Below are positions 405-22,406 of a stretch of 64,000 nucleotides of DNA, piece by piece. The notes beneath the pieces were generated by a model, which searched no databases, was not told the origin of the DNA, and worked only from the letters and a program-made list of their open reading frames with translations. The stretch is from Escherichia phage vB_EcoM_ESCO9. The position numbers were made by a program, and so were the translations under genes. The stretch is taken from sequence record OM386654.1; one strand, given 5' to 3'. Numbering within the stretch: the stretch's first letter is position 1; each line of letters starts with the position of its first letter.

Positions 405-416
405 TAGGAGAATCCT

Positions 417-2189
417 GTGTCTTATGTTGTAAATAAATATGGGTATAACATTGATCTAAGTCAAGAAGGACATACTGGGTGTCCTCGTTGTATGAAAGGA
501 GGGCGTGATCGATCACAAAACAATTTGATGGTATATGGCTTAGATGCCGATGAAGACCATCGAGGCGCACATTGTTTTTCTTGTGGCTTTACTATCCCTG
601 ATCAAAAATGGTTAAATGCACACGGCGAAGAAATTGAAGAGGAGGATATCTTGGGTAGTGAGTTTAATCCAGAAGTACATGATAAACTAAAAGCCAGCAC
701 TGGAACTAATCCAAAAGGTTATCGCGGTATTCGTGAAGATATCTCTAAGCCTTTCGGTGTACGTTATATGTACGATGAAGCTACTGGCGAAGTAATTTCA
801 ACACTATACCCTACAACTAAAGATTACAATATTGCTGGGTATAAACAACGTATCGATCCAAAAGATTTCTCACATCCTATCGGTGAAACAGGAAAGGATT
901 GTGATCTTTTTGGGGAGTTTAAATATCGTAACCACAGCGGTACTATTCTAATCGTTGGTGGTGAACACGATATGCTGGCTGCAACACAGATGCTAAAAGA
1001 TTATAACAAGGGTGGTAAATATCCTGTTCCTGCTGTAGTATCTGGTACTTGTGGCGAAACATCTCTGCATAAGCAGCTTCAACATCGTTATAAATTCTTA
1101 GATCAATTTAAAAAGATTGTTCTATGTATGGATAATGATGAAGCTGGACGTGCAGCAGTTGAGAAATGTGTTAAAATCTTACCACGTAATAAAGTTTACG
1201 TGATGGAACTAACGGATGTTAAAGATCCTAACCAGGCACTAGTAGAAGGAAAAATTGATCATTTTATTGATCGCTTTTTCAAAGCTAAACTGTACACACC
1301 TGCTGGTGTTTACGCTTCTAACGTACTATATGAAGCAGCCTTGGAATGCCTGGAAGCTAAAATGATCACCCTTCCTCCATTCATGCGTGTTGCTTCGAAT
1401 ATGTTAGGTGGAGGCTTGGTAGAAGAAGAAATTACTGTTATACTTGCAAAAACAAGTATCGGTAAGACACTGTTGGTTAACGAGATTACGAAACACATTA
1501 TTCTTGCACACCCAGAACATACTCTTGGTATTTTATCTTTGGAGGCAACGTATAAGAAGTATTCTCGTAACTTACTGTCTTCATTCTTGCATATCCCTCT
1601 TCACCGTAAAACGAAAGAAGAGAAGGAAAAGATTTTAAAAGATAATGAAGAAAAGATTCGTGATTTTTACGAACGAGAAGATGGAACACCACGTTTCTAT
1701 GTTTGTGATGATCGTGGAGCTAACGTAGATGTGATTAAAGAGAAGGTTCTGGAAATGATTATTTATTTCGGAGTAACCATTCTTGTTATCGACCCTTATT
1801 CTGACTTGCTTTCTGGTATGGACGTGTCACAACAAGAGGAACTTGCGACGTGGCTGAAACGCATTATGAAAGAGTATGCAATAACCATTGTTGTAATTTC
1901 ACACGTTAAAAAGTCTTCTAACAATAGTAATGAACATATTGTAGAAGATGATGCAATGGGTAGTAGCTTCCTTGCTAAAGGTGCTGGTATCACAATTGCG
2001 CTGGAGCGTGATAAACAAGCTGAAGATCCTATGGAACGTAACCGCACATATTGCTACATTCTAAAGAACCGTGAGTTCTCAGAGACTGGTGCAGCAGGTA
2101 GTTTCTTCTATGAGATTAAAACAGCTACACTTCACGATTACGATCAATACACAAGTAACCCAGAGAATATTCCTGATGGTTCTTATTAA
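417..2189 (+). CDS. DNA primase/helicase (zinc ribbon + Toprim primase fused to DnaB-like P-loop helicase)
   Basis: GTG start after GGAGAA; CPRC...CFSC zinc ribbon; Toprim-like ILIVGGEHDM...CMDNDEAG; Walker A AKTSIGKT; Walker B-like VIDPYSD. Confidence 0.85.
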   Translation: MSYVVNKYGYNIDLSQEGHTGCPRCMKGGRDRSQNNLMVYGLDADEDHRGAHCFSCGFTIPDQKWLNAHGEEIEEEDILGSEFNPEVHDKLKASTGTNPKGYRGIREDISKPFGVRYMYDEATGEVISTLYPTTKDYNIAGYKQRIDPKDFSHPIGETGKDCDLFGEFKYRNHSGTILIVGGEHDMLAATQMLKDYNKGGKYPVPAVVSGTCGETSLHKQLQHRYKFLDQFKKIVLCMDNDEAGRAAVEKCVKILPRNKVYVMELTDVKDPNQALVEGKIDHFIDRFFKAKLYTPAGVYASNVLYEAALECLEAKMITLPPFMRVASNMLGGGLVEEEITVILAKTSIGKTLLVNEITKHIILAHPEHTLGILSLEATYKKYSRNLLSSFLHIPLHRKTKEEKEKILKDNEEKIRDFYEREDGTPRFYVCDDRGANVDVIKEKVLEMIIYFGVTILVIDPYSDLLSGMDVSQQEELATWLKRIMKEYAITIVVISHVKKSSNNSNEHIVEDDAMGSSFLAKGAGITIALERDKQAEDPMERNRTYCYILKNREFSETGAAGSFFYEIKTATLHDYDQYTSNPENIPDGSY

Positions 2190-2199
2190 GGAGAGAAAT

Positions 2200-2595
2200 A
2201 TGAAAGACAACGAAAATATCCTTTATGGGGTATCCCCTTCTGCGTTAGGGTATGATTATACGAAAACTGTTGCTAAGTTTAAATTTCAAGATGGATCGGA
2301 GTTAGAACCATACGGTTATGCTTATGGTGAACATTTGTGGTTTGAGGATGGTTGCCTATACCTTCTCATTCAAACTACCAGTGGTTTTGTGGGAGAGCTT
2401 GTAGATCGTATGCTGAAAAATGTTAGTGATAAAGTTGTTCTTGATATCGCTAGTAAGGATGAAAACATTAATAACATTGTTTCCACTTTTAATGGTTTGA
2501 CAGGCACTGTTAAAATTGAACGTGTAGGCTTGAGAAATACCAATGGTGTCCCTAATTGCCTTATTAAAGTACAACTAAGTGCTGACAATAAATAA
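2200..2595 (+). CDS. hypothetical protein (131 aa)
   Basis: ATG at 2200 preceded by GGAGAG; the track's longer ORF from 2071 would overlap the helicase gene. Confidence 0.5.
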   Translation: MKDNENILYGVSPSALGYDYTKTVAKFKFQDGSELEPYGYAYGEHLWFEDGCLYLLIQTTSGFVGELVDRMLKNVSDKVVLDIASKDENINNIVSTFNGLTGTVKIERVGLRNTNGVPNCLIKVQLSADNK

Positions 2596-2685
2596 CAAGA
2601 AGGGGCGAAAGCCCCTTTACAAAACAATTAATTTGTGGTACAGTATTAACAAATTAAGACTTTAGAAATATTTTAAGGAGGGAGA

Positions 2686-5265
2686 ATGGGAGCTTTTACT
2701 TTCGACATTGAAAGTAACAACTTGCTTAATGACGAAAGTGTAGATTACTTGGCAAGTCCATATCGTTTAAAAGATAGTTTTGCAATGCACTGTATTGTGT
2801 GCGAAAGTCATGATACTGGAGAGATTATTGCTTTCCATGATGGTGATAAATATCTTTTCGATGGTCGTCCGTATATTGAGACTGACGGAAAGTATGAATA
2901 CCGACTGGAGGAATATGAGCATTTAGAATATACCCATTTCCCTCTTAAAGATTTTCCTGATTTTGTAAATGGAACAGGTAAATTTAAAGGTAATTCAAAC
3001 TATAAAATTACCAAAGTAGTTGGACATAACATCATTAACTTTGACTTACTGGCAATTAAATTATTTTTTAAACTCAACTACAGTATTAAGTACAATACTT
3101 GGGGTAATAGTAACATTGAAATTTGTGATACTATGATCTTAAGTAAGACACTAAACCCTGATCGCTTCGGTGGTCATAGTCTGGCAGAGTTATCTAAGAA
3201 AGCTGGAGGGGATGTTAAAATTGATTTTAGAAAAAACATCCCTGAAACTGAAAGATTTAAAACATTTGCAGCAGATATGCTGTATTACTGTATTTACGAT
3301 AACAAAGCTAACACCGCAGTGTTCCGTTATTTGATGGAAGAGTGGGGTGATTATAATAAGTGGTCTGAACCATTTAACTTAGAACAACGTGTAGCTGATA
3401 TTATTACACGTCAAGAGCACCGTGGCTTTGCTTTCAATATGAAGCAAGCAGAAGATAATATTCGTGATCTGGATGCTCGAATGGAAGCATGTCGTTTAGA
3501 GGCAGAACCTGTGCTACCTCCTAAACCTGCTACTAAAGGTTATTTGAAATCATTCATTCCACCTAAACTACAGTTTAAAAAGAATGGTGAACCTTCAAGT
3601 AACATGATAAAGTTTGCAGAGAAACATTCTGGTGAACTTGTACAAAAAGAAGATGGTTGGTGGTTATTTGCATTAGGTAAAGAGTTTAAACTGCCTATTC
3701 CAGCAGAAGAACCTATTTGTGATCCTACAGTACCTGCTACTTTAGACGACACTACACATATTAAAAATTGGTTAGTTGGTTTAGGTTGGAGTCCATCTGA
3801 ATATAAAGATAAAGATATCACTCTTAAATCTGGCACTAAGATTAAGAAAGATGAAGCACAAATGGAGAAAGCTATTCGTGACTATGTTGATCAAACATTA
3901 GCATCTAACTTCTGCCAGGATAGATGTGATCATCTGGAGTGCACACCAGAAACTTTGGAATGGAAACTAAGAGATCGTATTGCTAAAGCTAAAGGTCGTG
4001 GTGTTAAGGTGCTTACTAACCCTTCCTTTACAAAAGGGCAAGAGAAGGATATTTGTCCTAACTTGGAAGCACTAGGTGAAAAGTTTCCTTATGCTACGCA
4101 GATTGTGCAGTATCTTACGTATAAACATCGTAGAAACTCTATTCTAGGCGGTGGTGCTGATTGGGAAGAGGATGAAGAGGATTACGATAAAGGTTATCTG
4201 GCGGCAGTAAGGGCTGATGGTCGTATACCGACTCCTGCTGCAACGTGTGATGCAGCTACGTCTCGTATGAAACATAGGTTAGTAGCAAATATCCCACGTG
4301 TAACATCTCTGTACGGATATGAAATGCGTAACTTATTTGGTGTAGAAGTTCCAAAATACTTCCAAATTGGTTATGACTTTGATTCTCTTGAGGCAAAAAT
4401 AGAATCACACTACTGTTGGCGGTACGAGCAGGAACCACATGAATATTGTAATGCTCTATTATTGGAAAAACCTAATGATGTTCATACAATGATGGCTCGA
4501 CGTATTTCTGACACTATTGGTCGTAAGTTTGAACGAAGCCCTGCTAAATCTGTTAAGTATGGTATTACTTATGGTGCTCAAGCTGCAAAAGTAGCAAAAA
4601 CTATAGGTAGTGATATGTATACAGGACAGCTTGTATACGATGCTTTCTGGGAAGCTGCAAAACCTCTTGCGCTTCTTAAAGAACGTCTGCATGATTTTTG
4701 GGTTAAAACAGGTAAGAAATACATTCTTGGTATTGATGGTAGGAAAGTACCTACACGATCTGCACACGCAATACTTAACTCTCTGTTCCAGAGTGGTGGT
4801 GTTATTTGTGCAAAAAGAGCAATGGTTATCTACGACGATCTTATCGAAGAAGAAGGATTAGCTGTTGACTTTTTTGTTGATGACTGGAAAAATAAGTCAT
4901 TCGTTCAACAAATGATTGCATATCACGATGAAGCACAGCTTGAAGTAACTCGTGATCTGGTGCATTTTAAATGGTTCTCTAAAGAATCTTTAGGTTGGAC
5001 TCAAGTTGATGATCCAGAAGAACAAAAGAAAATTGATAAAGAATGTTTGGATAAGGTTAATGCCTGGAAAGAAGAGGAAGAGAAACGTACTGGCAAGATT
5101 TGGGCTAACGTACATGAATCTCCGAAAGGTGGTTGGTTTACAGCCTACAGTCGTGCTGGAGAATTAGCATCTATCGCTGTTAATAAAGCTGGTGAGTATT
5201 ACAATCTTAATGTACCTCTCACTGCTGGTTACGATGTTGGTAGTTCATGGTCAACTTGTCACTGA
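2686..5265 (+). CDS. DNA polymerase, family A (Pol I-like) with 3'-5' exonuclease domain
   Basis: 859 aa; exo motif VGHNIINFDL; motif B-like KSVKYGITYGAQ; motif C AYHDEAQLEV; RBS AAGGAGGGAG. Confidence 0.9.
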   Translation: MGAFTFDIESNNLLNDESVDYLASPYRLKDSFAMHCIVCESHDTGEIIAFHDGDKYLFDGRPYIETDGKYEYRLEEYEHLEYTHFPLKDFPDFVNGTGKFKGNSNYKITKVVGHNIINFDLLAIKLFFKLNYSIKYNTWGNSNIEICDTMILSKTLNPDRFGGHSLAELSKKAGGDVKIDFRKNIPETERFKTFAADMLYYCIYDNKANTAVFRYLMEEWGDYNKWSEPFNLEQRVADIITRQEHRGFAFNMKQAEDNIRDLDARMEACRLEAEPVLPPKPATKGYLKSFIPPKLQFKKNGEPSSNMIKFAEKHSGELVQKEDGWWLFALGKEFKLPIPAEEPICDPTVPATLDDTTHIKNWLVGLGWSPSEYKDKDITLKSGTKIKKDEAQMEKAIRDYVDQTLASNFCQDRCDHLECTPETLEWKLRDRIAKAKGRGVKVLTNPSFTKGQEKDICPNLEALGEKFPYATQIVQYLTYKHRRNSILGGGADWEEDEEDYDKGYLAAVRADGRIPTPAATCDAATSRMKHRLVANIPRVTSLYGYEMRNLFGVEVPKYFQIGYDFDSLEAKIESHYCWRYEQEPHEYCNALLLEKPNDVHTMMARRISDTIGRKFERSPAKSVKYGITYGAQAAKVAKTIGSDMYTGQLVYDAFWEAAKPLALLKERLHDFWVKTGKKYILGIDGRKVPTRSAHAILNSLFQSGGVICAKRAMVIYDDLIEEEGLAVDFFVDDWKNKSFVQQMIAYHDEAQLEVTRDLVHFKWFSKESLGWTQVDDPEEQKKIDKECLDKVNAWKEEEEKRTGKIWANVHESPKGGWFTAYSRAGELASIAVNKAGEYYNLNVPLTAGYDVGSSWSTCH

Positions 5266-5292: not shown

Positions 5293-5889
5293 ATGCTTAC
5301 CGTATATGGTGAAGGTATTAATGATTTGGAAGGCGAGAGTACGCTACCTGGTAGTAAGAAACTAACGCCGCATTATATGAAATGGATGGCTATGTTGGGG
5401 AGGTGTTACTCCCCTTGTCAACAAGAACGTGATCCTTGTTATAATGGGGTGACGGTTTGTGAAGAATGGAAACTGTTCTCCAATTTCTACTCTTGGTTGC
5501 AAACTTGGGATAACTGGGAAAACTTAGAACTTGATAAAGATATTATAGGAGGGAGAGTTTACTCTCCCGATACCTGTCTTTTAGTAACAGGAGATCTTAA
5601 CAAGTTCTTAGCTTATAGAGTAAGTAAAAGATCTCATGGGACTATGGTAGGATGTAGTTACGAAAAAGATCGTAAAAAGTATAAAGCCCATATTCAACGT
5701 GATGGACGTGTTATAACACTGGGACGTTTTAATACTGAAATTGAAGCGCATCTTTGTTGGTTGAAGGCTAAGGCAGAACAGCTTACAAAATTCTTTGAAA
5801 CTGAAGATGAAAGAGTTGTTCCACATCTTAAAGCACTATATAATGAAATGCTTGAGCATGTAGAACAACACAAAGAGTGGACACGATAG
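5293..5889 (+). CDS. AP2-domain DNA-binding protein, possible homing-endonuclease-like gene
   Basis: C-terminal YKAHIQRDGRVITLGRFNTEIEAHLCW resembles the AP2 DNA-binding domain found in phage homing endonucleases; no catalytic motif identified by eye. Confidence 0.4.
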   Translation: MLTVYGEGINDLEGESTLPGSKKLTPHYMKWMAMLGRCYSPCQQERDPCYNGVTVCEEWKLFSNFYSWLQTWDNWENLELDKDIIGGRVYSPDTCLLVTGDLNKFLAYRVSKRSHGTMVGCSYEKDRKKYKAHIQRDGRVITLGRFNTEIEAHLCWLKAKAEQLTKFFETEDERVVPHLKALYNEMLEHVEQHKEWTR

Positions 5890-5897
5890 GAGAAAAT

Positions 5898-6491
5898 ATG
5901 AATATTGAAGATCAAAAAGTACGAGCTTTAGAAGTATTACGTATGTGCCAACTGGTAGATCCGTTTGCAATTGTAGCTGGCGGCGCTGTACGTGACTGGC
6001 GATTAGAGAAACCTGCGCAAGATATTGACATTTACTTGCGTATGCCTAACCACAATACACTCGTGCTAGTAGAGAAGTTTTTGATGTTGGGTGTTGGTGC
6101 ACGTAATGTTAAACAACTTACTAAGCAAACAGAACACACTTATGCCGAACTACCACATTTGAAATGGGTATTTGAAGCATACTATAAAGACCTTAAGTTT
6201 AACTTTATGATCATGGAAGAAGGTGTACGCAGTGAAATCGTATGGAACTTTGATGTAGCTATTTGCCTGTGTTACTGGGATGGTCAAAATTATGTATATC
6301 ATCCAGATTTTGAATTTGCACTGAAAACTAATATTTGTACTATTAATCACCGCTACACAGGTAAAGAAGCACACGTCCGTAAAATGGCAGAACGTTTCCC
6401 TATGTTCCGCTTTGTAAAAGACGTTTTCATTCCCAAAGAACCAGAAGTACGTACACTGGATTCATTTAACAACGAAGAATTTAAGATTTAA
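5898..6491 (+). CDS. hypothetical protein
   Basis: ATG at 5898 preceded by AGGAG; track start at 5877 has no RBS and overlaps the upstream gene. Confidence 0.5.
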   Translation: MNIEDQKVRALEVLRMCQLVDPFAIVAGGAVRDWRLEKPAQDIDIYLRMPNHNTLVLVEKFLMLGVGARNVKQLTKQTEHTYAELPHLKWVFEAYYKDLKFNFMIMEEGVRSEIVWNFDVAICLCYWDGQNYVYHPDFEFALKTNICTINHRYTGKEAHVRKMAERFPMFRFVKDVFIPKEPEVRTLDSFNNEEFKI

Positions 6492-6494
6492 GTG

Positions 6495-6524
6495 TTGACA
6501 AACATTATAATTATGTGTTATTAT
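6495..6524 (+). promoter_or_regulatory. sigma70-like promoter (-35 TTGACA, -10 TATTAT)
   Basis: TTGACA at 6495-6500, 18-nt spacer, TATTAT at 6519-6524 preceded by TGTG; 10 nt upstream of the ATG at 6535. Confidence 0.4.
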
Positions 6525-6534
6525 TAGGACTTGA

Positions 6535-6933
6535 ATGACAGATAATCGTTCTAAAATCTTAGTCGAGACGTTCTACAGTAGAGAAACTAATCGTCTTGAG
6601 CTAACTAAAAAAGATGTTGAACCTCAAGATAATACCTTTTTTATTCAAATACTATGTCTCTTTGGTGGATACAATCGTTTAACAGTGAGAGTAGAAAACA
6701 AAGAGATATCTGAAACCACTATCACAAAACGTGAACTAATGCTACTACAGGATACAATACGAGATGTTTTGGATAATCCTGGAAAAGCAAAAGTAATTAA
6801 CCTTGGTGGAGAAAAGATACAAATCCTCCATTTCGAAAGTGGTGAAATAGGATTTGGTATTGGTCTTGGTAAATACCTGTTGGAAGAAACTGACGCTACT
6901 CTTTTACGAGAGTTTTGTGTTAAAGTAATGTAA
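6535..6933 (+). CDS. hypothetical protein (132 aa)
   Basis: ORF track; promoter-like element immediately upstream. Confidence 0.5.
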   Translation: MTDNRSKILVETFYSRETNRLELTKKDVEPQDNTFFIQILCLFGGYNRLTVRVENKEISETTITKRELMLLQDTIRDVLDNPGKAKVINLGGEKIQILHFESGEIGFGIGLGKYLLEETDATLLREFCVKVM

Positions 6934-6949
6934 TTATAGAGGAGAATTT

Positions 6950-7897
6950 ATGCCAGTAATTAATTCTGAAATCGATCGTCGTACTAAAAAAGAAGCATTC
7001 TGGGCTGAAGGTATCGTTGAATATGTCAAACTAGATAAGTTTGATGAAATGAAAGTCTCTTATATTAAGGTTGCAGGTCAGCCAGATAAGAAAATTGAAT
7101 CAACTCACAAAGCATCCCTGCTTATTAAAGAGAAAGGTGCTGGTGCTGATGATAAAGGTGTTTGGGTTAGCCTAGGTGAAGTTAAACTGCACCCAGAACA
7201 TGAAAACCTGCAAGTTAAAGATGGTGATAAGTGGATTACTATCGAAAAAGGTGTAGAAGTAACTATGGATGTTAAACCTTCCGAATGGAATGGCAAAACA
7301 TACTACAACTCCTCTAAAGGTAAAATCACTGTTCTTTCAACAGAAGGTGTTCAGCAAGCACAATCTTCTTCAAAAGGTGGAAATAAGCCATCTAATAACG
7401 AAGGTAGCAAGCCTAACTACAAAAAACGTGATACCGTAGGGATTGAAACAGGACACGCTGTAAACGGCGCTCTGGAGCTTCTACGTGCTGGTGTGAAAGG
7501 TGATGCTTTCGACTTGGCTGGTGTGGTACAATCTGCAACTGTTAATCTGAAAGCAGAAATTGCTAAAGATCGTGGCGTTGATGTGACTGACTATGATCTT
7601 GGTGCTTCAGTTGGACACGCAATTCTTAACGCTTGTCGTGATCATACAGGTAAAACTGTAACGGCAGAAGAGATTATTGAAGCTGCTCGTGAAGTTCTTG
7701 CTTTGTCTGATAAAGTAGCTGCTGCTATCCGTGGAATGTCTACCCCAGTACAAGAAGTTAAGAAAGAAACTAAAAAAGTAGAGAAAAAAGAGCCAGCACC
7801 GAAAGAACCAGAACCTGTTGTTCAAGATTTCGATGATGATATCCCATTTGCTCCTATTGGTTTGCAGTATGGTCGAAATTTCCTGCACTGTTTCTAA
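6950..7897 (+). CDS. single-stranded DNA-binding protein-like
   Basis: Contains DFDDDIPF, identical to the acidic C-terminal tip of bacterial SSB, followed by 15 extra residues; Gly/Ser/Asn-rich linker; high-expression-like codon usage; RBS AGGAG. Confidence 0.5.
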   Translation: MPVINSEIDRRTKKEAFWAEGIVEYVKLDKFDEMKVSYIKVAGQPDKKIESTHKASLLIKEKGAGADDKGVWVSLGEVKLHPEHENLQVKDGDKWITIEKGVEVTMDVKPSEWNGKTYYNSSKGKITVLSTEGVQQAQSSSKGGNKPSNNEGSKPNYKKRDTVGIETGHAVNGALELLRAGVKGDAFDLAGVVQSATVNLKAEIAKDRGVDVTDYDLGASVGHAILNACRDHTGKTVTAEEIIEAAREVLALSDKVAAAIRGMSTPVQEVKKETKKVEKKEPAPKEPEPVVQDFDDDIPFAPIGLQYGRNFLHCF

Positions 7898-9080: not shown

Positions 9081-9113
9081 AAAAGAAAAGGAGCCTAATG
9101 GCTCCTTTTTGTT
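9081..9113. terminator. bidirectional terminator between convergent genes (A-run, GGAGCC-TAAT-GGCTCC, T-run)
   Basis: Hairpin at 9090-9105 flanked by A-run and T-run; sits where the plus block meets the minus block. Confidence 0.5.
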
Positions 9114-10999
9114 TATGTAACATTGACTGTAAATCTGACAAGAGGTGATAACACGTCATTATCAGCATCATAGTGTGCAACATCAAACACTGTTGTACCT
9201 GCTGCAAATCCATATTGTTCAACCTGATCTGCATAAGTAAATGTGTAAGTGTTAGTATCCAGGGTTTGTTCTGTAAGAATTGCTGCTGTGAGGACGTTTA
9301 CATTTCGGAAGTAATGTTTAGTATATCCTGCTGGTTCCCAAGAGACAATTGCATCTTGGTTAGCTTGTCTTACAGCGGCTCCTCCTGTTGGAACAGACAT
9401 ATCAACCCAAACAGGTGACGCTGATGTTAAGTCTGTACCGTCTGCTGCCGATTTAGCAAGTTTTGTAGCTGCTGTTTGATATACAGAAGAAATATAATGG
9501 ATACGACCATCAATACCTTCTTCATAAACATAACCACTGTAACGTTCAGCACCATCTACCCAAGAACCAATTATAACATCATCACGTGCTGTAGAGATGG
9601 TTCTTTGTACATTTCTGTACTTCTGCCAATCCACACCATTAACTTCTACACCATATAAATAAGAACGTCCTAGGATCTGCCAAACAATTTTTGCTTGAGA
9701 AGCAGGAACTATTGTACGCATCTTATCAAAGATAGCTATCGTAGCATCATGGTAACGTGTAGTGTTACTGTACCTACCTGCAACAGTCGAAGATGCTGAT
9801 ACAGCATCATTTTCACCTTGTCCCCAAATAATTGCTTTAACCTTACTTGCATAAGGTGTGACTTTAGTGATAAAGTTAGTTAAGCATGGCCCATCTGCTG
9901 TGTTATCCAGATCATACCAGTAGTTGTCTGGTGTTCCTGTTCCGGCTTTATCATCTGCATATTTATCTGCTGCTGATGATCCAGAAGCTGCATTTAACGG
10001 AAGAACTTCAGCATTTGCTAAACCACGTTGCGTAGCATATGCATTACGGGCTGTTGTGCTACTCATTGCTGCTTTATTTGCACCAGATAGTTCTGTAAAG
10101 TGTGCATTTACGTTATCTTGTCCAGCAAAGACAATAACTTCTTTAATGAATGAATCATCTGTAGCTATTGAGCTATTAAAGATAACGGCTGCTGCTTTGG
10201 TGCTCTTAACGCTAATTTTAAGGTATGTTGGAGCAAACCCATAAAGAGGAATAGAGTCAGAGATATCAAAGTAGGCGTAAGTATTTGTGGTTGTTGTAGT
10301 CCACTGGACACTATTATCACTTAAATCTAATACTTCTACAGTATAAGTATCACCATCTAGCGGATCAGTTACATCCCAAGCAACACGAACGTCTCCATAA
10401 CTGTTTGCCACGGCTGTTACATTAGAAATAACAGGAATAGCATTAACACCTAAATAAGAACTATCAGAGGCCACAACTGTTCCTTGATACGTTGCAGTAC
10501 AACCTATACGGCAATTACCATCTTTAAGAGCAGTTATTAATCCTGTAGGGCTTACAGTAGCTACTTCTGGATCTGTTGTGGTGTACGTAATTACCATGTC
10601 TGGAAGATCTTTAGCACCTTCTGGACTGATTGTAGCAACCAACTGTTGAGTAGTGCCTACATCCATAGCTGATAGACTTTCAGTGTACACGCTTAATTCT
10701 GAAGCATAACCACCAGATTGATCAGTTAAGACAGCACCTAAATTATTTTTAGCTGTCATTATTGCATCAAAACCACCTTCGGCAACAAACTCCATCATAC
10801 CACTATTATCTATAACCATTTTGGTATTATCTGAAGATGAAAAAGCTATATCAAATAACGCACCATCTTCCGGTGAAACTGTGTATGTCAGTTGCTTTTT
10901 ACTACCAACTATTGCAATACCAATAGAGGAAGTGGTTATAGATGTAGCTGTTACTACTGAAGCTGATGTTGTTGACATAAATAAAGGAATAGGATACAT
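9113..10999 (-). CDS. virion/tail-fibre protein with Ig-like (Big_2) domains and a SASA/SGNH-type carbohydrate esterase-like domain
   Basis: 628 aa; Big_2-like repeats (ATISPEGAKD..., VATVSPTGLITALKDGNCRI); esterase-like blocks IVFAGQDNVNAHF and IIWGQGENDA. Confidence 0.5.
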   Translation of the reverse strand: MYPIPLFMSTTSASVVTATSITTSSIGIAIVGSKKQLTYTVSPEDGALFDIAFSSSDNTKMVIDNSGMMEFVAEGGFDAIMTAKNNLGAVLTDQSGGYASELSVYTESLSAMDVGTTQQLVATISPEGAKDLPDMVITYTTTDPEVATVSPTGLITALKDGNCRIGCTATYQGTVVASDSSYLGVNAIPVISNVTAVANSYGDVRVAWDVTDPLDGDTYTVEVLDLSDNSVQWTTTTTNTYAYFDISDSIPLYGFAPTYLKISVKSTKAAAVIFNSSIATDDSFIKEVIVFAGQDNVNAHFTELSGANKAAMSSTTARNAYATQRGLANAEVLPLNAASGSSAADKYADDKAGTGTPDNYWYDLDNTADGPCLTNFITKVTPYASKVKAIIWGQGENDAVSASSTVAGRYSNTTRYHDATIAIFDKMRTIVPASQAKIVWQILGRSYLYGVEVNGVDWQKYRNVQRTISTARDDVIIGSWVDGAERYSGYVYEEGIDGRIHYISSVYQTAATKLAKSAADGTDLTSASPVWVDMSVPTGGAAVRQANQDAIVSWEPAGYTKHYFRNVNVLTAAILTEQTLDTNTYTFTYADQVEQYGFAAGTTVFDVAHYDADNDVLSPLVRFTVNVT

Positions 11000-11016
11000 T
11001 TAATCTCCTTAAATAA

Positions 11017-11036
11017 TAAGCCCCCGAAGGGGCTTT
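11017..11036 (-). terminator. terminator-like hairpin (AGCCCC-CGAA-GGGGCT)
   Basis: Perfect stem at 11019-11034; on the minus strand followed by TATTATTT. Confidence 0.35.
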
Positions 11037-11038
11037 GA

Positions 11039-13000
11039 TTATGTGCGTTTAGCAACAATAGCATCTACGTAATCGCCAACACCACAATATGTTAGTTGTA
11101 GTATTGTTACTCCGTTAGGATCTGTATTAATATCACTAGAACCAATTACTTTGTAAGATGGATCTAAAGTAACAGTACGACCTCCAGTGGCATCTTGGAT
11201 AAGATAAACTATTGCAGAGAATGGTTTAGGTTTTGTGCTATCTTCGACACCAGGCCATGCTTTTATAGTAGAGTTACCAGTAAGATTCAACACATTCATG
11301 TTATGTGTTCCTGGAGGTGTCCAGTCACCTGTAACAGAGTTGTTGGTGTATGCTGTAACCTCTATAAAATTAGTTGTTACTTTTGTTGGAACTATATCTT
11401 GACCATCTACAGAACTAGTGAGTTCTTCCCATGCTCCATCTTTACGAGCATAGATCTTACCGTCACTAGGTGCATCTGTGATGCTAGGCAGTGTACCTTG
11501 AGAAGTCCAGGCAGTTGCAGATGTTTTTAAGAACACCTCACCAGTGGAGATATTAAAGGCATAATCACCTTGTTTACCATCACTAGAAATTGGATCTGTT
11601 GTTTTAACAATCCAAGTTGCACCGTCTGTACCGTTAGTACCAGCGTCACCTTTTTCACCCTTATCACCTTTCAAACTACCCATATCTACATATTCAGCAG
11701 TTTGAGTTTGTTCATCATAGGTGTAAATGTAAAGATGACCTGTATCTTCCGTCAGATAAGCATCACCGTAATTGGCTGTAGGAGGAAGTGCACTTGCAGA
11801 CGCAACGTGTCCTTTTGCAGTGATTGGAGTACCAGCTAAACGACCAACATTTGTCCACTGTGTGGCTCCTTGCAACCAAACCCAAAGTTCATTATTGATC
11901 AGATAACCATCACCATCTTCTCCAGTTTGTGGTAGTTCAGAAGTGTCAGTCAGAATATCAATAATTGTCAACCCTGCACCAGTTGGCCCCGTCAAGCCTT
12001 GTATACCCTGCTCACCTTGATCACCCTTGTCTCCCTTATCACCTTTTTCTCCTTTCAGAGAGGCAATATATTCATCAATAGTACCAACGTTACCAGCATT
12101 TAACCAGACTTGATAAGCAGAATCACCAGTGTTACCCTTATCTCCTTTGTCGCCTTTATCTCCTTTTGGCCCCACTATAGCGCCCATATTGATCCATTCT
12201 ACACCGTTTGACACGTATAGATATGTACCAATACTCCATGCTTGAGATGTGTTTCCAGGAGATGCAGAAGGAAGATCTGAAACAGAATTAGCTGCACCTT
12301 GGTAATCAAAACCATTAGCATTATTACCTGGTACACCTTGTGGCCCCTCTGGGCCAGGTTCCCCTTTATCACCTTTAATTGAAGCAAGATAATCTAGTTC
12401 TGTACCTTCATTTCCTGCTGCAAGCCATACTTCATAAGCAGATTTACCTTCTGGCCCCTGTGAGTTTACTTTTCTCCAAGCAGTGCCATCCCAAGCATAC
12501 ATATTCTCGCCTACAATCCATGCGTCACCTGCATTGTTTCCAGTTGTAGGTAATTGGTTGGTATTAGACAGCGTTCCTAATAGCTTTAATGGAGCACCTG
12601 GATCGCCTTTTAAAGAAGCCAACCACTCTGCCTCAGTACCTTGGAAACCATTGTCTACGGCAATCTGGTAAGCTGATTTACCAGCTTCTGGAATGGACTC
12701 TCTAAGATCTTCAATTTCAGCTTCAATAGCATCTAATTCTGATTCTATTTGAGCAATGTCATCTGCATTACCCACATTTTTCCAAGCTGTATCTGAAATC
12801 CCTCCAGTAGATGTAGGAGTAGAGTTAGCAGGTACAACTTTAGGTAGAGAACCTTTCCACTGATAGTAGTTACCGTCAGTTTCAAAGAGCAATGCTTCAC
12901 GAGCATCTCTTAAGGTAAAACCACTTGCAAAACTTCTACGCTTTCTATAGCGAGACTCTACCATGTCTGCAATGGCACTATTTGGACGTGTTAAAATCAC
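11039..13000 (-). CDS. tail fibre protein with collagen-like Gly-X-Y repeats
   Basis: 653 aa; GDKGDKGDKGNTGDS and KGEKGDKGDKGDQGEQGIQGLTGPTGAG; recurring SAYQ(V/I)W...E(Y/W)LASLKG motif. Confidence 0.6.
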   Translation of the reverse strand: MILTRPNSAIADMVESRYRKRRSFASGFTLRDAREALLFETDGNYYQWKGSLPKVVPANSTPTSTGGISDTAWKNVGNADDIAQIESELDAIEAEIEDLRESIPEAGKSAYQIAVDNGFQGTEAEWLASLKGDPGAPLKLLGTLSNTNQLPTTGNNAGDAWIVGENMYAWDGTAWRKVNSQGPEGKSAYEVWLAAGNEGTELDYLASIKGDKGEPGPEGPQGVPGNNANGFDYQGAANSVSDLPSASPGNTSQAWSIGTYLYVSNGVEWINMGAIVGPKGDKGDKGDKGNTGDSAYQVWLNAGNVGTIDEYIASLKGEKGDKGDKGDQGEQGIQGLTGPTGAGLTIIDILTDTSELPQTGEDGDGYLINNELWVWLQGATQWTNVGRLAGTPITAKGHVASASALPPTANYGDAYLTEDTGHLYIYTYDEQTQTAEYVDMGSLKGDKGEKGDAGTNGTDGATWIVKTTDPISSDGKQGDYAFNISTGEVFLKTSATAWTSQGTLPSITDAPSDGKIYARKDGAWEELTSSVDGQDIVPTKVTTNFIEVTAYTNNSVTGDWTPPGTHNMNVLNLTGNSTIKAWPGVEDSTKPKPFSAIVYLIQDATGGRTVTLDPSYKVIGSSDINTDPNGVTILQLTYCGVGDYVDAIVAKRT

Positions 13001-13041: not shown

Positions 13042-15456
13042 TTAAGCATTATTGACAGTAACAAAAGTAACAGGGTTCAGAGCTTTAATTTGTGTATTCT
13101 CTGCTGTAGGTGTTACAATTGGATCTGCAATATCTATTGTGTACAAACTATTTGTCACATATGTAGCACGTGCTATAGTTGTCACAAGATCGCCGCCATT
13201 TGCACCTGCACCTGGAATAACAATCTTAGTACCTGCTGCTTTAGCGTAGCCATTACTAGCCCAGTTTAAAGCATTAGACTGTAGATAGGTTTGACCTGTA
13301 ACAGTTGCTTTTATTTTCTCGTTGGCACTAAAGAAAGCACCACCTACTGTAACAACATGTTTTTTACCGCTTGCACAATGAATAACTGTTCCAGTAGGGA
13401 ATTCACGCCCACCTGGGAATTCATCATAAGCTGTAAAATATTGTTCAGAGATAGTAGTTAAAACTGGCCCACGATGACCTGTTCCATCAACAGCAGTTGG
13501 AACACCAAAGTTATTTCCAACCTGATCGCAACGATCCGTGTAGATTTTAGCAAAAGAAACTGTTGTTTCATCTCCGCTAAGTGCTGTACATCCTACCCAC
13601 TTCATATACGTGAATTGGCTGCGAGTATAGAAACCGCCACCACTTCCTTCTCCGCTTCCGTGTTGACCAATAAAGTCAATACTACGGCAACGAATATTAT
13701 TAAAGGTAGAGCTAGATGGTAGCCCACGCCATTTAAAAACATTACAATTGATATTACTAACAATTGTAGAGTTTTCCCAGTCATCTGATCCAGATGTTGC
13801 AATCTCAATTGAAGATTCTGGAATATCCAAATTCTTAATTGTAAAGTTAATTGGTGGCCCCGCATATCTTCCACTGTTAACACCCCAGTCAATAAAGACC
13901 ATGCGTGTTGAAACAGACGGATCATTAAGCAGATAACCAGTTAAACCATCAACTTCAAAATCTTGGCATCCGTATAATGCAACACCACAAGTAGTTAAAC
14001 CTGTACCTGTTGAAACTGCTGTGTTAGGATAAACTTCATTATCACGTATTGTGAAGTTTTTACCCATTTCAACGTGTAAACATTGACGGCAATTGTAAAC
14101 CCTATTCCCAACGATACTGAAATTACGTACATATTGTGAATCAGGAACATCAACACCATATGGGCCACTACCTGCTACACCAATACCAATACCCCAGTTT
14201 GCACCTTGTCCAGAAGCATCTACGTTAGCAATGTGGTTATTCTCGATAATCAAACCTTCAGTGTAGTGTTTTTGAACTACGTTAAGTTCAATAGCATCAC
14301 CTTTAATATCGTGAATATAGTTGTTAGAGTAACGCCCGTAGGTCATTACTTCTCCAGTACCTTGTTGCAGGATCGCATATTTACAACCATACATTTCGTT
14401 GTAACTGAAGTCCAACGTACCTTCACTTGTCATTGCTTGCATTAAGAATGCTGCTGTAGATGTTGCGTTGGAGAAGATATTACGATAGAATCGGCAATCG
14501 CCACCTAACATCTTAACATAACATTTTTCAAAGCGAACGTTTTCCATCCAACAGGACACAGTAGAAATCATTGTTCCACCGTTACCAGTGAATGTACCAC
14601 CATACCAACGAATACCAGACATAGCAATTGAGCTTGTGAATCTATAATTCTTATCTGCACGTACTTGAATGTTATTCGTGTTAGCGAAAGTAATGGTTTT
14701 TAAAATTGCTTGGGTATCATCGGTAACTCCATCACCAATTGCACCAAACTGCTCAGGCGTTACAAAGTATTGAGCTTGTAACAGGTTGCCTCCAGATGGA
14801 AGACCAACCATTGCTGCACCAGTGGTAGATGACAAAAGGTTTTTCTCTACGTAAGAAGTAGAGGCTGTTGTTTTACCAATAAAAGCAAACAATTTGTTAG
14901 GTAGACCAGTAGACGGATCTAAACCTAATGGTTCTGCCAGAATAATTTTACTATCTTTGATAGTAAATGCTTCACCTTGAATCTGAATTACACCGTTAAT
15001 GGTGACAATAGCATTATCAAAGATATAAGGAGGACTGATTTCTGTTTCATATCCTGTAGCACCTTTAAAATACCAAGGATACACATCTGAAGCTAACTGT
15101 TCAGTTTTAAGAGCGTACAGAGTCCAGTTACTATCTCCTACAGGTGTACCCTGCATAGGTACAGGGTTAGCAGTAGTGGCAGATGGGGCATAATAGTATC
15201 CACTCAAGATACCGTTTTCAAAATAACGTAACTGGTTAAATACAGTTTCAGTTGATCCTGCTGACCAAGCAACAGGACTCTTAAAGAAGAAGTTATCAAC
15301 AAGTGCTTTACGCAGTGTAGGTATTAAACCTGTTTCGGTTTCTACAGTTGCTGTAGCATCCCCATTAATAACATCATGCATCTGGTTAGACGAGAATATA
15401 ACCAGATCAACACCTTGTTCTAGTGTCGTAGCAGGATATGTTGGAAAATTCGCCAT
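13042..15456 (-). CDS. tail fibre/tailspike protein, probable right-handed beta-helix
   Basis: 804 aa; repetitive N/G/T/S-rich segments typical of beta-helix tailspikes; in the fibre cluster. Confidence 0.5.
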   Translation of the reverse strand: MANFPTYPATTLEQGVDLVIFSSNQMHDVINGDATATVETETGLIPTLRKALVDNFFFKSPVAWSAGSTETVFNQLRYFENGILSGYYYAPSATTANPVPMQGTPVGDSNWTLYALKTEQLASDVYPWYFKGATGYETEISPPYIFDNAIVTINGVIQIQGEAFTIKDSKIILAEPLGLDPSTGLPNKLFAFIGKTTASTSYVEKNLLSSTTGAAMVGLPSGGNLLQAQYFVTPEQFGAIGDGVTDDTQAILKTITFANTNNIQVRADKNYRFTSSIAMSGIRWYGGTFTGNGGTMISTVSCWMENVRFEKCYVKMLGGDCRFYRNIFSNATSTAAFLMQAMTSEGTLDFSYNEMYGCKYAILQQGTGEVMTYGRYSNNYIHDIKGDAIELNVVQKHYTEGLIIENNHIANVDASGQGANWGIGIGVAGSGPYGVDVPDSQYVRNFSIVGNRVYNCRQCLHVEMGKNFTIRDNEVYPNTAVSTGTGLTTCGVALYGCQDFEVDGLTGYLLNDPSVSTRMVFIDWGVNSGRYAGPPINFTIKNLDIPESSIEIATSGSDDWENSTIVSNINCNVFKWRGLPSSSTFNNIRCRSIDFIGQHGSGEGSGGGFYTRSQFTYMKWVGCTALSGDETTVSFAKIYTDRCDQVGNNFGVPTAVDGTGHRGPVLTTISEQYFTAYDEFPGGREFPTGTVIHCASGKKHVVTVGGAFFSANEKIKATVTGQTYLQSNALNWASNGYAKAAGTKIVIPGAGANGGDLVTTIARATYVTNSLYTIDIADPIVTPTAENTQIKALNPVTFVTVNNA

Positions 15457-15797
15457 TAATTTTTGTCCTTACTTTGTGTGCGCTTCGTAATCTCCTCTAA
15501 CATTAATTGAACAGGAGCATTTTTTAAATCCATTATTTTTTCAATCTTCTGTTCTAAGGCAGTGTTATTTGCCATTAATGTAGAGTTGATCTGGTTAAGC
15601 ATTTGAGCAAGTTCTGCTTTGGTAGCATAAGTGGATTCAACAAACACCAACTTCTTTTCTAGTTCGCGGTATTTGTCTTCCATTTTATCCAAATCACTTG
15701 CCATATCATCTATCTTCTGTTTGAAGACCACCCAGATTACGCCAATAAGAGGGATAATCGCCTCTTTAGCGATATCCCATACTTCTGTTAGCTCCAT
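15456..15797 (-). CDS. hypothetical protein (113 aa), membrane/coiled-coil
   Basis: ORF track; N-terminal hydrophobic segment; ATG overlaps upstream stop. Confidence 0.45.
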   Translation of the reverse strand: MELTEVWDIAKEAIIPLIGVIWVVFKQKIDDMASDLDKMEDKYRELEKKLVFVESTYATKAELAQMLNQINSTLMANNTALEQKIEKIMDLKNAPVQLMLEEITKRTQSKDKN

Positions 15798-15806
15798 ACA
15801 TTGCCC

Positions 15807-16358
15807 CTATTTCTTAGGTCTTGTAGGCCAAGTTATATTAGGTGCATCTTCAACGTTAATTTGAATTAATGTTGCACGATAGAGTTTAACTTTTCCTAAC
15901 CAATCTTTTTGTTCTTCAGATAAACCTTGTAATTCCTCTAAATCTTGAATCGCAGACACTTGATTCGTAGCCCAAGTTAGCTCCTTTTCTAACTTAAGAG
16001 TAGCATCTTCAATAGCAAGATTATTGTGAGGAACAAACTTACCTTCAACATATTGCCAAGAGCCAATATTACTTTCATCTTCTATTTTATCTGGTACATT
16101 ATATGTAACTAAAATAGATTGTCCGGCAGGGAAATAGGTAGTAACATCTTTAGTAGCACCACGTACAATATTATTATCATCTAAGGTAATAAAATAAGCG
16201 TCGGGATATTCTACCATCAAAGTTTTTTGAAGCTGATACCAGTCGTTACCATCTTTGTCTTGCAAAAAACCACCACCAACAGAAAGATAAAGAATATTTT
16301 CTTCTGTTAATTCTGGTTCATACAATTCAAAACCTGTAAAAATAACGTCTTTTTTCAT
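15807..16358 (-). CDS. hypothetical tail-associated protein
   Basis: ORF track; position inside the fibre/baseplate cluster. Confidence 0.45.
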   Translation of the reverse strand: MKKDVIFTGFELYEPELTEENILYLSVGGGFLQDKDGNDWYQLQKTLMVEYPDAYFITLDDNNIVRGATKDVTTYFPAGQSILVTYNVPDKIEDESNIGSWQYVEGKFVPHNNLAIEDATLKLEKELTWATNQVSAIQDLEELQGLSEEQKDWLGKVKLYRATLIQINVEDAPNITWPTRPKK

Positions 16359-20246: not shown

Positions 20247-22406
20247 CTATATATAAAATTTTTGTGTTGTTACTAAATCTTCTCCAGATTTAGTGGCTAA
20301 TGTAATTCCACTTATGGTGGCAATCGTAACATTTACCTGTTTAAGAGTGATATCTTGCAAATAGCAATTCAAAGGCACATTACCCATATAAAAAACTTGG
20401 GATTTTGAATTAAGAACAGTTATTGAATCATGCATTATTTGTGGATAAGCCCATATGTATTGATATAAACCAACAAACTTCTGGTCATTCAATACAATAT
20501 TACCTATAATCATTTTCCACAAATATGTCCTATAGTTTGATTCAGGATCAAAGCCATATAATGGTGCTAGAGTTGCATCTGGAACAAACCCTGCAAGATA
20601 ATGTATCTTATCATAACTAAAACCTAGTTGCTCATTAGGTATTGTGATAGCGTCAAAAGATCTTTCCATCTTACCTTCCAACAACCAATCATAACATTCT
20701 GAACAATAAAAATCAAAGTTTTCTGGGATATAATAATCTTTAGGGAAGTTAACAAATTCCATCATACCGTTACCTAAGATGGATGGTACAAATGGTAACA
20801 ATGTAACTTTTGCCCCAGGATATGCTAATCTAGTATCTGTTGCAAATTTAGCAACACGCAGTCCTAATGTTTTAGATAGGAATGCATAATATTCATCATA
20901 TGGTGTACCAGTTTTATAATTCTTAACTGTACCAACATCTTGTGCATATAATCCAGTTTCATTATTAAATGCAACTTTGGTTGTATAATCATAAATACAC
21001 GGTAGATTGGTAGCTGTATTATACCACCACCACGGTTCACCAACCTGAATAATAACCGGAAGATCATTAGCAGCGGATATAGAAGCTATCTTATTTATTA
21101 CACCTTGTAAATAATTCATCCCTTCATCAATTGAAGGAGATAAAACATAACTTGGTGGCTCATAACCTGTAGCAGCCAGATCATCATTCCAAGTATGTTG
21201 TACCCATTCTACAGGACACACTGTACTCATAAGTTCAAAACTTAAGGAGTTCATTACTGTGTAGCCCATAGCTTTTGCATTAGCGTGGAAGTTATCAAAC
21301 CAGGCTTCTGTTGCTGGGTTTAAATATTCTGTTCTGTTCAAAGCCCATTTATTAGAGCCAGCGTCCCAACTAAATTGATAATAATGTGACATACCATTAT
21401 AGTGGTTAATCATATCCCTATAACCTAATCTGTAGGTGTTAGAAATAACTCGCTCTGGGGTAAGGTTATACATATCATCATAAGATGTACACATTCTTAT
21501 GGTGTGTGCTGGAACATTTAAATTACCCATATTCATCATACTATAACCCGTATCAGGTTCCAGTATGGTAAACTTAAAGGAAAGATCCTCATTGTCTACA
21601 GGAATAATATCTTCAATTTCTTGATACCTTGTGGAGATCAAGGAGAAGAACATATTATCTATCTGTGTAGTGTCAACAACAATATCATTTTCTGGCCCAG
21701 ATTTTAAATTTGAGAAATCTAATTTTATTGTTGCTGTTTTACCATCCTCTGAAACTTCTTCTGCATAAAAGTTTAGAGATACATAATGAACTGTTTCATC
21801 CTTCAGTGTCACTGTTAAGGATGGCAATAATTTTTCTTCTTTTAATCCAGGAACACCTTGACTAAGTTCCATTTTAAACCAAAGTTTCTCTTTACTTAAG
21901 TCAGAATGTTCTTGGTAGCCTAATCCTTTGTGATCATATTTATCGTAAGTTGACCAAATAATCCCAGCAAGACCAGCCACTGTCCTATTAACCATTCTTG
22001 CTGTGAAAGAATCACCATTAGAGATAATAGAACAACTTTCTGTTGCTTGAGAATCTATTGTCCAAAACTTAGGATCAAACATTCTAGACTTCACAACAGG
22101 CCAAGTTAGCGGGGTTGTATTCGATTGATCAGTCGTAATAACACAACGAATTTCTTCATTGATCATCATGTTATTTTGACTTATGCTAGTAATCTCAAGA
22201 GTAAAATAAAGATCTAAAGAGTTTGCCGGACGTTCATATACATCAACCACTACAGTAGCAGAATCTGCATCAGAAGGGAACGTTACTGTTCCCTGTTTAG
22301 CTACATAATCTCTACCAGCGACCGCCGTTCCATCGACGGTCTTATAGCTGAATGAACTGGCATTTACTCTCGTATTTCGAGTTACAGTAAAAATAGCCTG
22401 TTTCAT
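20247..22406 (-). CDS. structural protein with N-terminal Calx-beta-like domain
   Basis: 719 aa; N-terminus FTVTRNTRVNASSFSYKTVDGTAVAGRDYVAKQGTVTFPSDADSATVVVDV matches the Calx-beta pattern. Confidence 0.45.
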   Translation of the reverse strand: MKQAIFTVTRNTRVNASSFSYKTVDGTAVAGRDYVAKQGTVTFPSDADSATVVVDVYERPANSLDLYFTLEITSISQNNMMINEEIRCVITTDQSNTTPLTWPVVKSRMFDPKFWTIDSQATESCSIISNGDSFTARMVNRTVAGLAGIIWSTYDKYDHKGLGYQEHSDLSKEKLWFKMELSQGVPGLKEEKLLPSLTVTLKDETVHYVSLNFYAEEVSEDGKTATIKLDFSNLKSGPENDIVVDTTQIDNMFFSLISTRYQEIEDIIPVDNEDLSFKFTILEPDTGYSMMNMGNLNVPAHTIRMCTSYDDMYNLTPERVISNTYRLGYRDMINHYNGMSHYYQFSWDAGSNKWALNRTEYLNPATEAWFDNFHANAKAMGYTVMNSLSFELMSTVCPVEWVQHTWNDDLAATGYEPPSYVLSPSIDEGMNYLQGVINKIASISAANDLPVIIQVGEPWWWYNTATNLPCIYDYTTKVAFNNETGLYAQDVGTVKNYKTGTPYDEYYAFLSKTLGLRVAKFATDTRLAYPGAKVTLLPFVPSILGNGMMEFVNFPKDYYIPENFDFYCSECYDWLLEGKMERSFDAITIPNEQLGFSYDKIHYLAGFVPDATLAPLYGFDPESNYRTYLWKMIIGNIVLNDQKFVGLYQYIWAYPQIMHDSITVLNSKSQVFYMGNVPLNCYLQDITLKQVNVTIATISGITLATKSGEDLVTTQKFYI

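Follow-up and report, generated by a model that had tools for sequence, protein, structure and literature searches.

Related Systems and the Gene under Study

The closest described relatives of the protein analyzed here are gp65 of phage N4 and the SASA family of SGNH esterases; the protein, of 628 amino acids, is encoded on the minus strand of a 64,000-nucleotide stretch (the window) of Escherichia phage vB_EcoM_ESCO9 (sequence record OM386654.1), a genome segment of a Justusliebigvirus, which is a phi92-like myovirus of the Stephanstirmvirinae. Two features set the SASA family apart: the block I Ser is flanked by a Gln, and this Gln is held in place by an (H)QGE motif in block III, the two together forming an inverted oxyanion hole. 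A block V Asp is not strictly needed, NanS being an enzyme without one (PMC9487903). Catalysis by SGNH enzymes passes through an acyl-serine intermediate, and substitutions in block I abolish activity (PMC9487903); in human SIAE the Ser and the His are both essential, and mutation of the equivalent Ser (S127) inactivates the enzyme (PMC8319020). The N4 protein, deposited as a "non-contractile tail sheath" of 1382 amino acids (PDB 9lc0, 9yf4, and 9yf5), is gp65, a long-known receptor-binding protein (PMC13434306, a structure paper of 2026).

SGNH domains are also carried on tail appendages, and encoded in fiber clusters like the one considered here, by the tailspikes and fibers of other phages, including G7C gp63.1, those of Moo19/B2, the receptor-binding proteins of Klebsiella prophages, and Vi-phage tail proteins. 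Esterase activity has been confirmed by experiment for G7C gp63.1 and for two of the Klebsiella prophage proteins (PMC13123978), whereas the 628-residue protein is without the Ser; it falls in the SASA branch and not the GDSL branch. Family CE2 (CtCE2, PDB 2wao and 2w9x), which is among the top PDB neighbors of the central domain, provides a precedent of another kind, an SGNH esterase active site that doubles as a carbohydrate-binding site through noncatalytic binding of polysaccharide in the active-site cleft (PDB 2w9x; PMC2661963). However, CE2 keeps the Ser-His dyad and is concerned with plant polysaccharides, and its relation to the 628-residue protein is one of fold and concept only.

9113..10999, minus strand: open reading frame (ORF) under study, 628 amino acids with an ATG start, from the ORF list; putative tail accessory or lateral-fiber protein, ortholog of muut gp034, short allele

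This gene encodes two Big_2 domains followed by a sandwich-SGNH-sandwich cassette homologous with part of gp65, and an Asp occupies the position of the catalytic Ser. The best explanation, which on balance we consider probable, is that the protein is a noncatalytic glycan-binding or scaffold module sharing its origin with the N4 gp65 cassette. It would then be an accessory tail or lateral-fiber protein built as beads on a string, the two Big_2 domains preceding the cassette. Its SGNH domain, having kept the fold and most of the SASA pocket but carrying Asp295 in place of Ser, would most likely carry out no deacetylation; the pocket would be lectin-like, binding a host surface glycan reversibly during adsorption, and/or the domain would serve as a scaffold.

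Domain Architecture

A full-length AlphaFold2 model built from 26 homologs has a mean predicted local distance difference test score (pLDDT) of 91, with residues 1–13 disordered, and the following domains can be assigned in order from the N terminus.

10700..10954, minus strand: immunoglobulin (Ig)-like domain 1, Big_2 type, residues ~16–100 (Pfam; all-beta in the model)
10439..10693, minus strand: Ig-like domain 2, Big_2, residues ~103–187, best Pfam stretch 112–170 (Pfam and model)
10166..10435, minus strand: beta-sandwich "YGF" domain 1, residues ~189–278, FN3-like with one short helix, contains LYGF (model; the profile aligns it to gp65 from residue 616)
9419..10162, minus strand: central SASA-type SGNH-fold domain without the nucleophile, residues ~280–527 (model, Foldseek, Pfam via relatives, and profile)
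9116..9397, minus strand: C-terminal beta-sandwich "YGF" domain 2, residues ~535–628, contains QYGF (model; the alignment with gp65 extends to residue 1079 of the latter, whose C-terminal repeats align as well)

A direct Pfam search with the whole protein returned only Big_2 and a subthreshold match to SASA. The Big_2 match (PF02368) lies above threshold, at 47.1 bits against a gathering score of 22.8 (E 2.3e-12), and extends over two stretches, in agreement with the two Big_2-like repeats that a previous sequence-only reading of the window had described. Segments 55–72% identical to the Big_2 pair are found in RCC1/DUF285 tail proteins that differ in their other parts. The whole protein gave no match in an NCBIfam search and no Pfam match to NCTSP_N or TIM-barrel_NCTSP, and neither a trimeric beta-helix nor a coiled coil is predicted in it.

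Fold of the Central Domain

The sequence-only reading had also likened two motifs, GQDNVN (residues 293–298) and WGQGEND (residues 392–398), to blocks of the sialate-O-acetylesterase family. Both are present, although that reading did not take into account the Asp in GQDN at the place of the family's Ser; a motif match alone would not be convincing, and searches with hidden Markov models of esterase families bear out the assignment only by way of relatives. In the direct search the SASA profile (PF03629) scored 15.0 bits against a gathering threshold of 24.8 (E 0.019) and aligned over profile positions 106–162 only. As judged from sequence comparisons within the family, however, homology with SASA is established transitively. 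An exhaustive phmmer search with residues 265–535 gave 80 cluster representatives; among the 50 of these that were scanned, 19 contain SASA at E ≤ 1e-5, and several family members exceed the SASA gathering score (for example P0194 with 51 bits and P0158 with 49 bits). Of solved structures, the family profile matches two of the SASA type, 2apj (E 9e-6) and 1zmb (E 1.8e-3), plus the CE20 esterase 9h4u.

In a fold search with the full-length model, matches to N4 proteins were followed by Ig/FN3 arrays, which dominated the results, and hence the central domain was predicted again alone. The domain-only AlphaFold model (residues 276–532) has a pLDDT of 95.5 and a predicted template modeling score of 0.92. 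It displays the features by which the SGNH fold was recognized, a three-layer alpha/beta/alpha arrangement around a five-stranded parallel sheet with the block I residue at the turn after strand 1; this turn lies between a strand at 287–293 and a helix at 295–301, as the fold would lead one to expect. In a Foldseek comparison with the PDB the top match is N4 gp65 (template modeling score 0.81, E 5e-14), and the other neighbors, among the 50 listed, are all SGNH, GDSL, CE2, SASA, PatB, SIAE, or PAF-AH structures. The structural neighbors of the domain in BFVD include many phage SGNH tail proteins. Since the SASA matches within the family, the profile matches to 2apj and 1zmb, and the structural neighbors all agree, the central domain as modeled is a real, although divergent, SASA-type SGNH fold, and the esterase-like fold foreseen by the sequence-only reading is present in the predicted structure.

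The Catalytic Site

Three of the conserved blocks can be located in the gene.

10112..10123, minus strand: block I, G293-Q294-D295-N296, with the Asp codon GAT (10115–10117) at the position of the family's catalytic Ser
9812..9820, minus strand: block III, Q394-G395-E396, the SASA-specific (H)QGE motif
9497..9499, minus strand: block V, His501 (RIHY)

Like the members of SASA/CE6 (PF03629), which include NanS, SIAE, At4g34215 (2apj), and CAC0529 (1zmb), the domain combines the SGNH fold with the block I Gln (Gln294), the block III QGE (residues 394–396), and the block V His (His501), although the His of HQGE is Gly393 here. It differs from them in its subthreshold Pfam score, in large insertions between blocks I and III, in its phage tail context, and, above all, in the replacement of the nucleophilic Ser by Asp295 (GQDN as against the family GQSN), which the profile aligns to S31 of 2apj. 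The nearest candidate for a block V Asp, Asp497, lies at −4 from His501 and not at the usual −3, and it is Ala in some orthologs; as noted above, NanS needs no Asp in this block.

The Ser and the block V His are found together in 27 of 38 aligned family domains. The remaining 11 are without the Ser; 3 belong to the clade with Asp, and the 7 domains that lack the His are all among the 8 outside that clade. The Ser has been lost repeatedly elsewhere in the family, to Ala, Met, Glu, Val, or Leu, usually with the His. Asp295 is invariant in all 36 ortholog clusters, including the 41–44% identical Av-05-like clade (P0033–36). In this sister clade the rest of the site has eroded, the block I Gln being replaced by Gly, the block II Ser-Gly by Phe-Ala/Ile, QGE by LGE, and the His by Gln in two of the four proteins, a pattern that would be expected if the ancestor of the Asp clade was already nonenzymatic.

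Deacetylation is unlikely because Asp295 stands in place of the Ser nucleophile, and these comparisons suggest that the 628-residue protein is probably not an esterase. The active, virion-borne deacetylase envisaged by the sequence-only reading is thus not supported, given the invariance of Asp295 and the erosion of the sister clade: the catalytic Ser/His/Asp arrangement is absent at its key residue. The accompanying view that an esterase would be unusual in this position is outdated, SGNH esterase tail proteins being widespread (PMC13123978; many BFVD matches).

It should be recognized that an unconventional catalytic site would also account for part of these observations. Asp295 could act as nucleophile or general base together with His501 and an oxyanion hole formed by Gln294 and QGE, and the virion-borne enzyme could remove O-acetyl groups from O-antigen, capsule, or the glycan known as the N4 glycan receptor (NGR). 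Retention of Gln294, QGE 394–396, and His501, the invariance of Asp295 in Justusliebigvirus orthologs, and purifying selection on the domain, with a ratio of nonsynonymous to synonymous substitution rates (dN/dS) of ~0.15, are consistent with such an activity. Phage SGNH tail esterases are common and proven, G7C gp63.1 and Klebsiella prophage receptor-binding proteins among them (PMC13123978); unusual triads exist in carbohydrate esterases, as in the water-mediated triad of CE20 (PMC12313940), and NanS functions without the block V Asp (PMC9487903); and NGR-like clusters of Achromobacter encode O-acetyltransferases (PMC8669472). We nevertheless consider an active esterase distinctly unlikely, since a conserved catalytic role of the Asp is hard to square with the sister clade, where this Asp remains but the Gln, the Gly of block II, the Gln of QGE, and in some members the His are gone, and since the closest solved relative, the second SGNH-like domain of gp65, is degenerate. 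Short of an exhaustive search, we are aware of no SGNH enzyme in which Asp serves as the nucleophile. The acyl-serine mechanism and the loss of activity on block I substitution (PMC9487903; S127 of SIAE, PMC8319020) argue in the same direction.

The closest Ser-retaining relative examined is P0123 (GQSN, 48% domain identity; ERZ4198739, positions 5832–7379 of the locus). On a phage-like metagenome contig, its gene ends the run of structural genes and is followed by a lysis cassette (Phage_lysozyme). Versions of the domain that are likely to be active therefore also appear to be phage tail genes.

Relationship to Phage N4 gp65

The only strong match to the 628-residue protein among PDB sequences is gp65 (phmmer E 8.7e-24). 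Residues 190–628 are homologous with residues 616–1079 of gp65 through the sandwich, the SGNH domain, and the second sandwich (family profile E 1.1e-68), and the full-length model matches gp65 in Foldseek with E 1.5e-31 over ~480 columns, even though the identity is only ~20%. The two proteins share a YGF sandwich on either side of an SGNH-like domain that lacks the Ser nucleophile, and gp65 contains repeats of the same kind as YGF domain 1. They differ in that gp65 has an NCTSP_N start, a TIM-barrel part, a first, partial SGNH domain, and extra C-terminal repeats, and pairs with gp64 in a six-fold sheath on a podovirus tail, whereas the 628-residue protein comes from a contractile-tailed phage, carries the cassette behind two Big_2 domains, and has its NCTSP_N and TIM-barrel counterparts in a separate gene. 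Moreover, it keeps the Gln, QGE, and His that the matching gp65 domain has lost, the latter having GINQ in block I, no QGE, and Tyr in place of the His.

20247..22406, minus strand: 719-amino acid ORF with Calx-beta, NCTSP_N, and TIM-barrel_NCTSP domains (Pfam, 1.3e-81 and 5.6e-21)

Among PDB sequences this second ORF matches residues 109–367 of N4 gp64 (2.4e-27) and residues 359–416 of gp65, and the set of modules of the N4 gp64/gp65 sheath is split in the ESCO9 myovirus over two genes ~9 kb apart; we came across no paper that draws attention to the second half of this split relationship. The ORF has the same length (2160 nucleotides, 719 amino acids) and the same relative position in the tail cluster as bas60_0026 of phage PaulScherrer, the two being matched by length and position and not by alignment. 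In the annotation, bas60_0026 has "glycosidase and deacetylase domains" and bas60_0037 has "intimin and glycosidase domains." The BASEL papers align a lateral tail fiber, termed a "glycan deacetylase," with an N4 tail protein. Identification of the 628-residue gene with that fiber was considered and rejected, the fiber being ORF 20247–22406 (bas60_0026) and the ortholog of the 628-residue gene being bas60_0037.

NCTSP_N or TIM-barrel sheath domains are also present in 13 of 50 homologs. Among phages, the cassette is found only in Justusliebigvirus, in Avunavirus (the Av-05 group), and in genes for a "tail sheath and receptor binding protein," the last in Escherichia, Achromobacter, Delftia, and Pseudomonas phages that are mostly N4-like, as judged from their names and genome sizes.

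In PDB 9lc0 (chains I and M, for gp65 and gp64), the first SGNH-like domain of gp65 (residues 438–601) consists of the N-terminal two-thirds of the fold, with blocks I–III and the Ser kept (GESQ/GESN). The C-terminal third that it lacks, with the His (GQIHF), is weakly matched by residues 15–78 of gp64 (E ~0.03–0.04). These matches suggest that the gp64-gp65 heterodimer may rebuild one complete SGNH esterase from two parts, which could be active; a similar division of the TIM barrel between the gp64 and gp65 chains is apparent.

Alleles and Selection

Most relatives of the 628-residue protein are longer, with 936–939 amino acids, and comprise the same 628 residues followed by a C-terminal domain of 310 amino acids (the long allele). 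This extra domain is found with 62% identity in Phapecoctavirus proteins and in more distant form elsewhere. When the gene is compared with its PaulScherrer ortholog, the synonymous divergence (dS) jumps from 0.05–0.10 upstream to 1.16 from about residue 531, and YGF domain 2 is highly diverged from the long-allele version; the dS jump indicates that the short and long alleles differ by recombination and not by truncation. In the same comparison dN/dS is ~0.15 for the Big_2 domains, the SGNH domain, and the C-terminal sandwich, as against 0.10 for the first sandwich, and only 4 amino acid differences are found in the SGNH domain. By these measures the gene is under purifying selection and still functional. 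The idea that the 628-residue form is a truncated pseudogene of the 939-residue form was rejected in view of its clean stop and terminator, its purifying selection, and its occurrence in muut, ZYD, Eryne, VEcB, phi92, and others.

The copy in phi92 itself (FR775895; positions 3411–5073 of the locus) has a 226-bp deletion (gene nucleotides 590–815) and a 2-bp insertion at nucleotide 1001, and is split into gp152, which contains the Big_2 part, and gp153, which contains the C-terminal part of the SGNH domain and has no ribosome-binding site. The disruption represents either a real pseudogene or a sequencing artifact. These lesions, with the loss of the catalytic Ser, would fit a decaying remnant that has no present function, but the ORF is intact in ~50 genomes with dN/dS ~0.15, its ribosome-binding site and terminator are conserved, and synteny is retained in Avunavirus at 41–49% identity; we regard decay as highly improbable.

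Tolerance of gene disruption in phi92 is also consistent with the view that the role of the SGNH-like domain is structural alone, the domain being a rigid spacer or a module for assembly taken from a sheath-like protein and having no ligand, with host recognition in long-allele phages carried out by the extra 310-residue domain. In N4 the homologous cassette builds the sheath wall, and the C-terminal repeats of gp65 bind the tail plug and not the host (PMC13434306). Most relatives have a further, mosaic domain at the C terminus, 62% identical to its counterpart in Phapecoctavirus proteins, as is typical of distal tips that bind receptors, and a recombination boundary lies near residue 531. However, the SASA pocket residues (Gln, QGE, and His) kept in the Justusliebigvirus clade would be needless in a spacer, and short alleles that end directly after the cassette stay intact, with their own terminator, in many phages, so that the cassette must be useful without the extra tip. 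An exclusively architectural role seems rather unlikely.

The 310-residue domain is of at least two types, that of alia and PaulScherrer and a phAPEC8-like type, 62% identical (the extension lies at positions 15093–16028 in the locus of a relative). Eryne, a short-allele phage, is described as poor on O-antigen-less K-12 and poor in NGR use, and PaulScherrer, with the long allele, is NGR-dependent; however, muut, arall, and outra match through the stop codon like short-allele phages (their individual coding-sequence lengths not having been checked) and yet were isolated on K-12. No firm correlation links the short allele with poor NGR use.

The NfrA/NGR Receptor System

If the pocket of the 628-residue protein is lectin-like, the leading candidate for its ligand would be the NfrA/NGR system, on which both N4 and Justusliebigvirus depend. 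Dependence on wecB and nfrB, and thereby on the NGR, is common to N4, the Vequintavirinae, and phi92-like phages, and the Justusliebigvirus phages Bas60–62 need NGR, wecB, and nfrB, as does N4 (PMC8669472, PMC11990801). The BASEL authors ascribe the shared NGR dependence to a shared "glycan deacetylase" lateral tail fiber. The hosts of the Achromobacter phages carry nfrA/nfrB/wecB clusters (Sellner et al., PMC8669472), and these phages also have the cassette.

A bolder proposal, which we advance as speculation and judge to be unlikely, is that the cassette with its repurposed esterase pocket is a shared host-recognition determinant of two unrelated morphotypes, the N4-like podoviruses and the phi92-like and Avunavirus myoviruses, in which the Asp295 site would be a lectin site for the NGR glycan, based on N-acetylmannosamine, or for the exporter NfrA. 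A variant in which Asp295 and His501 form a new catalytic dyad within the SGNH fold is less likely.

Several observations weigh against noncatalytic glycan binding and against the NfrA/NGR system as its target. The rV5-like Vequintavirus depend partly on NGR, but no rV5-like record is among the carriers of the cassette, and only the TIM-barrel fiber is held in common; the 628-residue protein is therefore not required for NGR use in general. In current models of N4 it is gp66 that binds NGR, whereas gp65 binds NfrA (PMC12892993, PMC13434306), and the ligand could therefore be a protein and not a glycan. In view of the rV5-like phages without the cassette and of this division of roles between gp66 and gp65, an NGR- or NfrA-binding role of the 628-residue protein is offered as a hypothesis and not as a result. 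The disrupted copy in phi92 implies that the gene is dispensable, at least in that phage. Furthermore, Gln294, QGE, and His501 are retained in the Justusliebigvirus clade, where purifying selection is strong, and Asp295 shows conservation and no drift, which could also point to a modified catalytic site. Finally, both the presence of the protein in the virion and any binding by it are inferred from sequence.

The Locus and Its Flanking Signals

At the DNA level, the 1887-bp gene shares 99.4% identity with the "tail protein" genes of the Escherichia phages muut and vB_EcoM_ZYD, and counterparts with ≥90% identity occur in 55 phage records. It stands last in a minus-strand tail module, and the plus-strand genes beyond converge on it. 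The "tail protein" gp034 of muut closes the tail module in the same way, behind a colanidase tailspike and a collagen-like fiber, and the ortholog in Avunavirus Av-05 has the same terminal position; together, the ORF, the convergent genes, and this synteny substantiate the earlier placement of 9113–10999 as the most distal gene of the fiber cluster. The neighboring features are as follows.

9085..9110, both strands: bidirectional intrinsic-terminator hairpin, common to the 628-residue gene and the convergent plus-strand gene
11005..11010, minus strand: ribosome-binding site AAGGAG, 5 nucleotides upstream of the ATG; the same motif is annotated as ribosome-binding site in phi92
11018..11035, minus strand: terminator-like hairpin AAGCCCC-TTCG-GGGGCTT, between the upstream fiber gene and the 628-residue gene (pattern scan and sequence)
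11039–13000, minus strand: upstream fiber gene with a Tail_spike_N (TSP1/Gp66-type) anchor, GDKGDKG collagen-like repeats, and a fibritin-C-like foldon

The ORF ends at a clean TAA, which is followed by the hairpin at 9085–9110. The hairpin at 11018–11035 is GC-rich with a T-rich tail and is located between the stop of the collagen-like fiber gene (11039) and the ribosome-binding site of the 628-residue gene, and, to judge from its sequence, it may reduce the transcription that continues into this final gene of the operon. The product matches PHROG 32204 (phrog_32204, "tail protein") end to end, and from this match, the synteny, and the homology with N4 gp65 we infer that association with the virion is plausible. 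A literature search for virion proteomics of Justusliebigvirus gave nothing useful. The upstream fiber (11039–13000) is a possible docking partner.

Four records with host C. jejuni, "Campylobacter phage" A150, C3, A110a, and A145 (MG065639, MG065656, MG065689, and MG065645), contain a 99% identical gene in a genome of the same size, and are probably mislabeled or contaminant genomes. In muut, four consecutive glycosyltransferase genes (gp044–047) are annotated upstream of the replication genes; by offset their equivalents would occupy ~1–3500 of the window. These genes are the "putative dTDP glycosylation machinery" of phi92-like phages described in BASEL in 2021.

Implications

The new elements in this analysis are the recognition of the missing nucleophile and the split relationship with gp65; in other respects this is an ordinary conserved tail accessory gene. 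Some GenBank records name its ortholog "tail carbohydrate esterase" or "non-contractile tail sheath," and, given the replacement of Ser by Asp, the first of these labels probably overstates the function. The caveat matters where annotations are used for enzyme mining or for host-range engineering of the phi92-like "Swiss-army-knife" phages. The homology of the cassette with gp65 in phages that depend on NfrA and NGR makes it a concrete, testable candidate for part of the recognition process. The Ser-retaining relatives and the Asp clade, in turn, form a natural pair in which to follow how esterase folds may be recycled into binding or scaffold modules.

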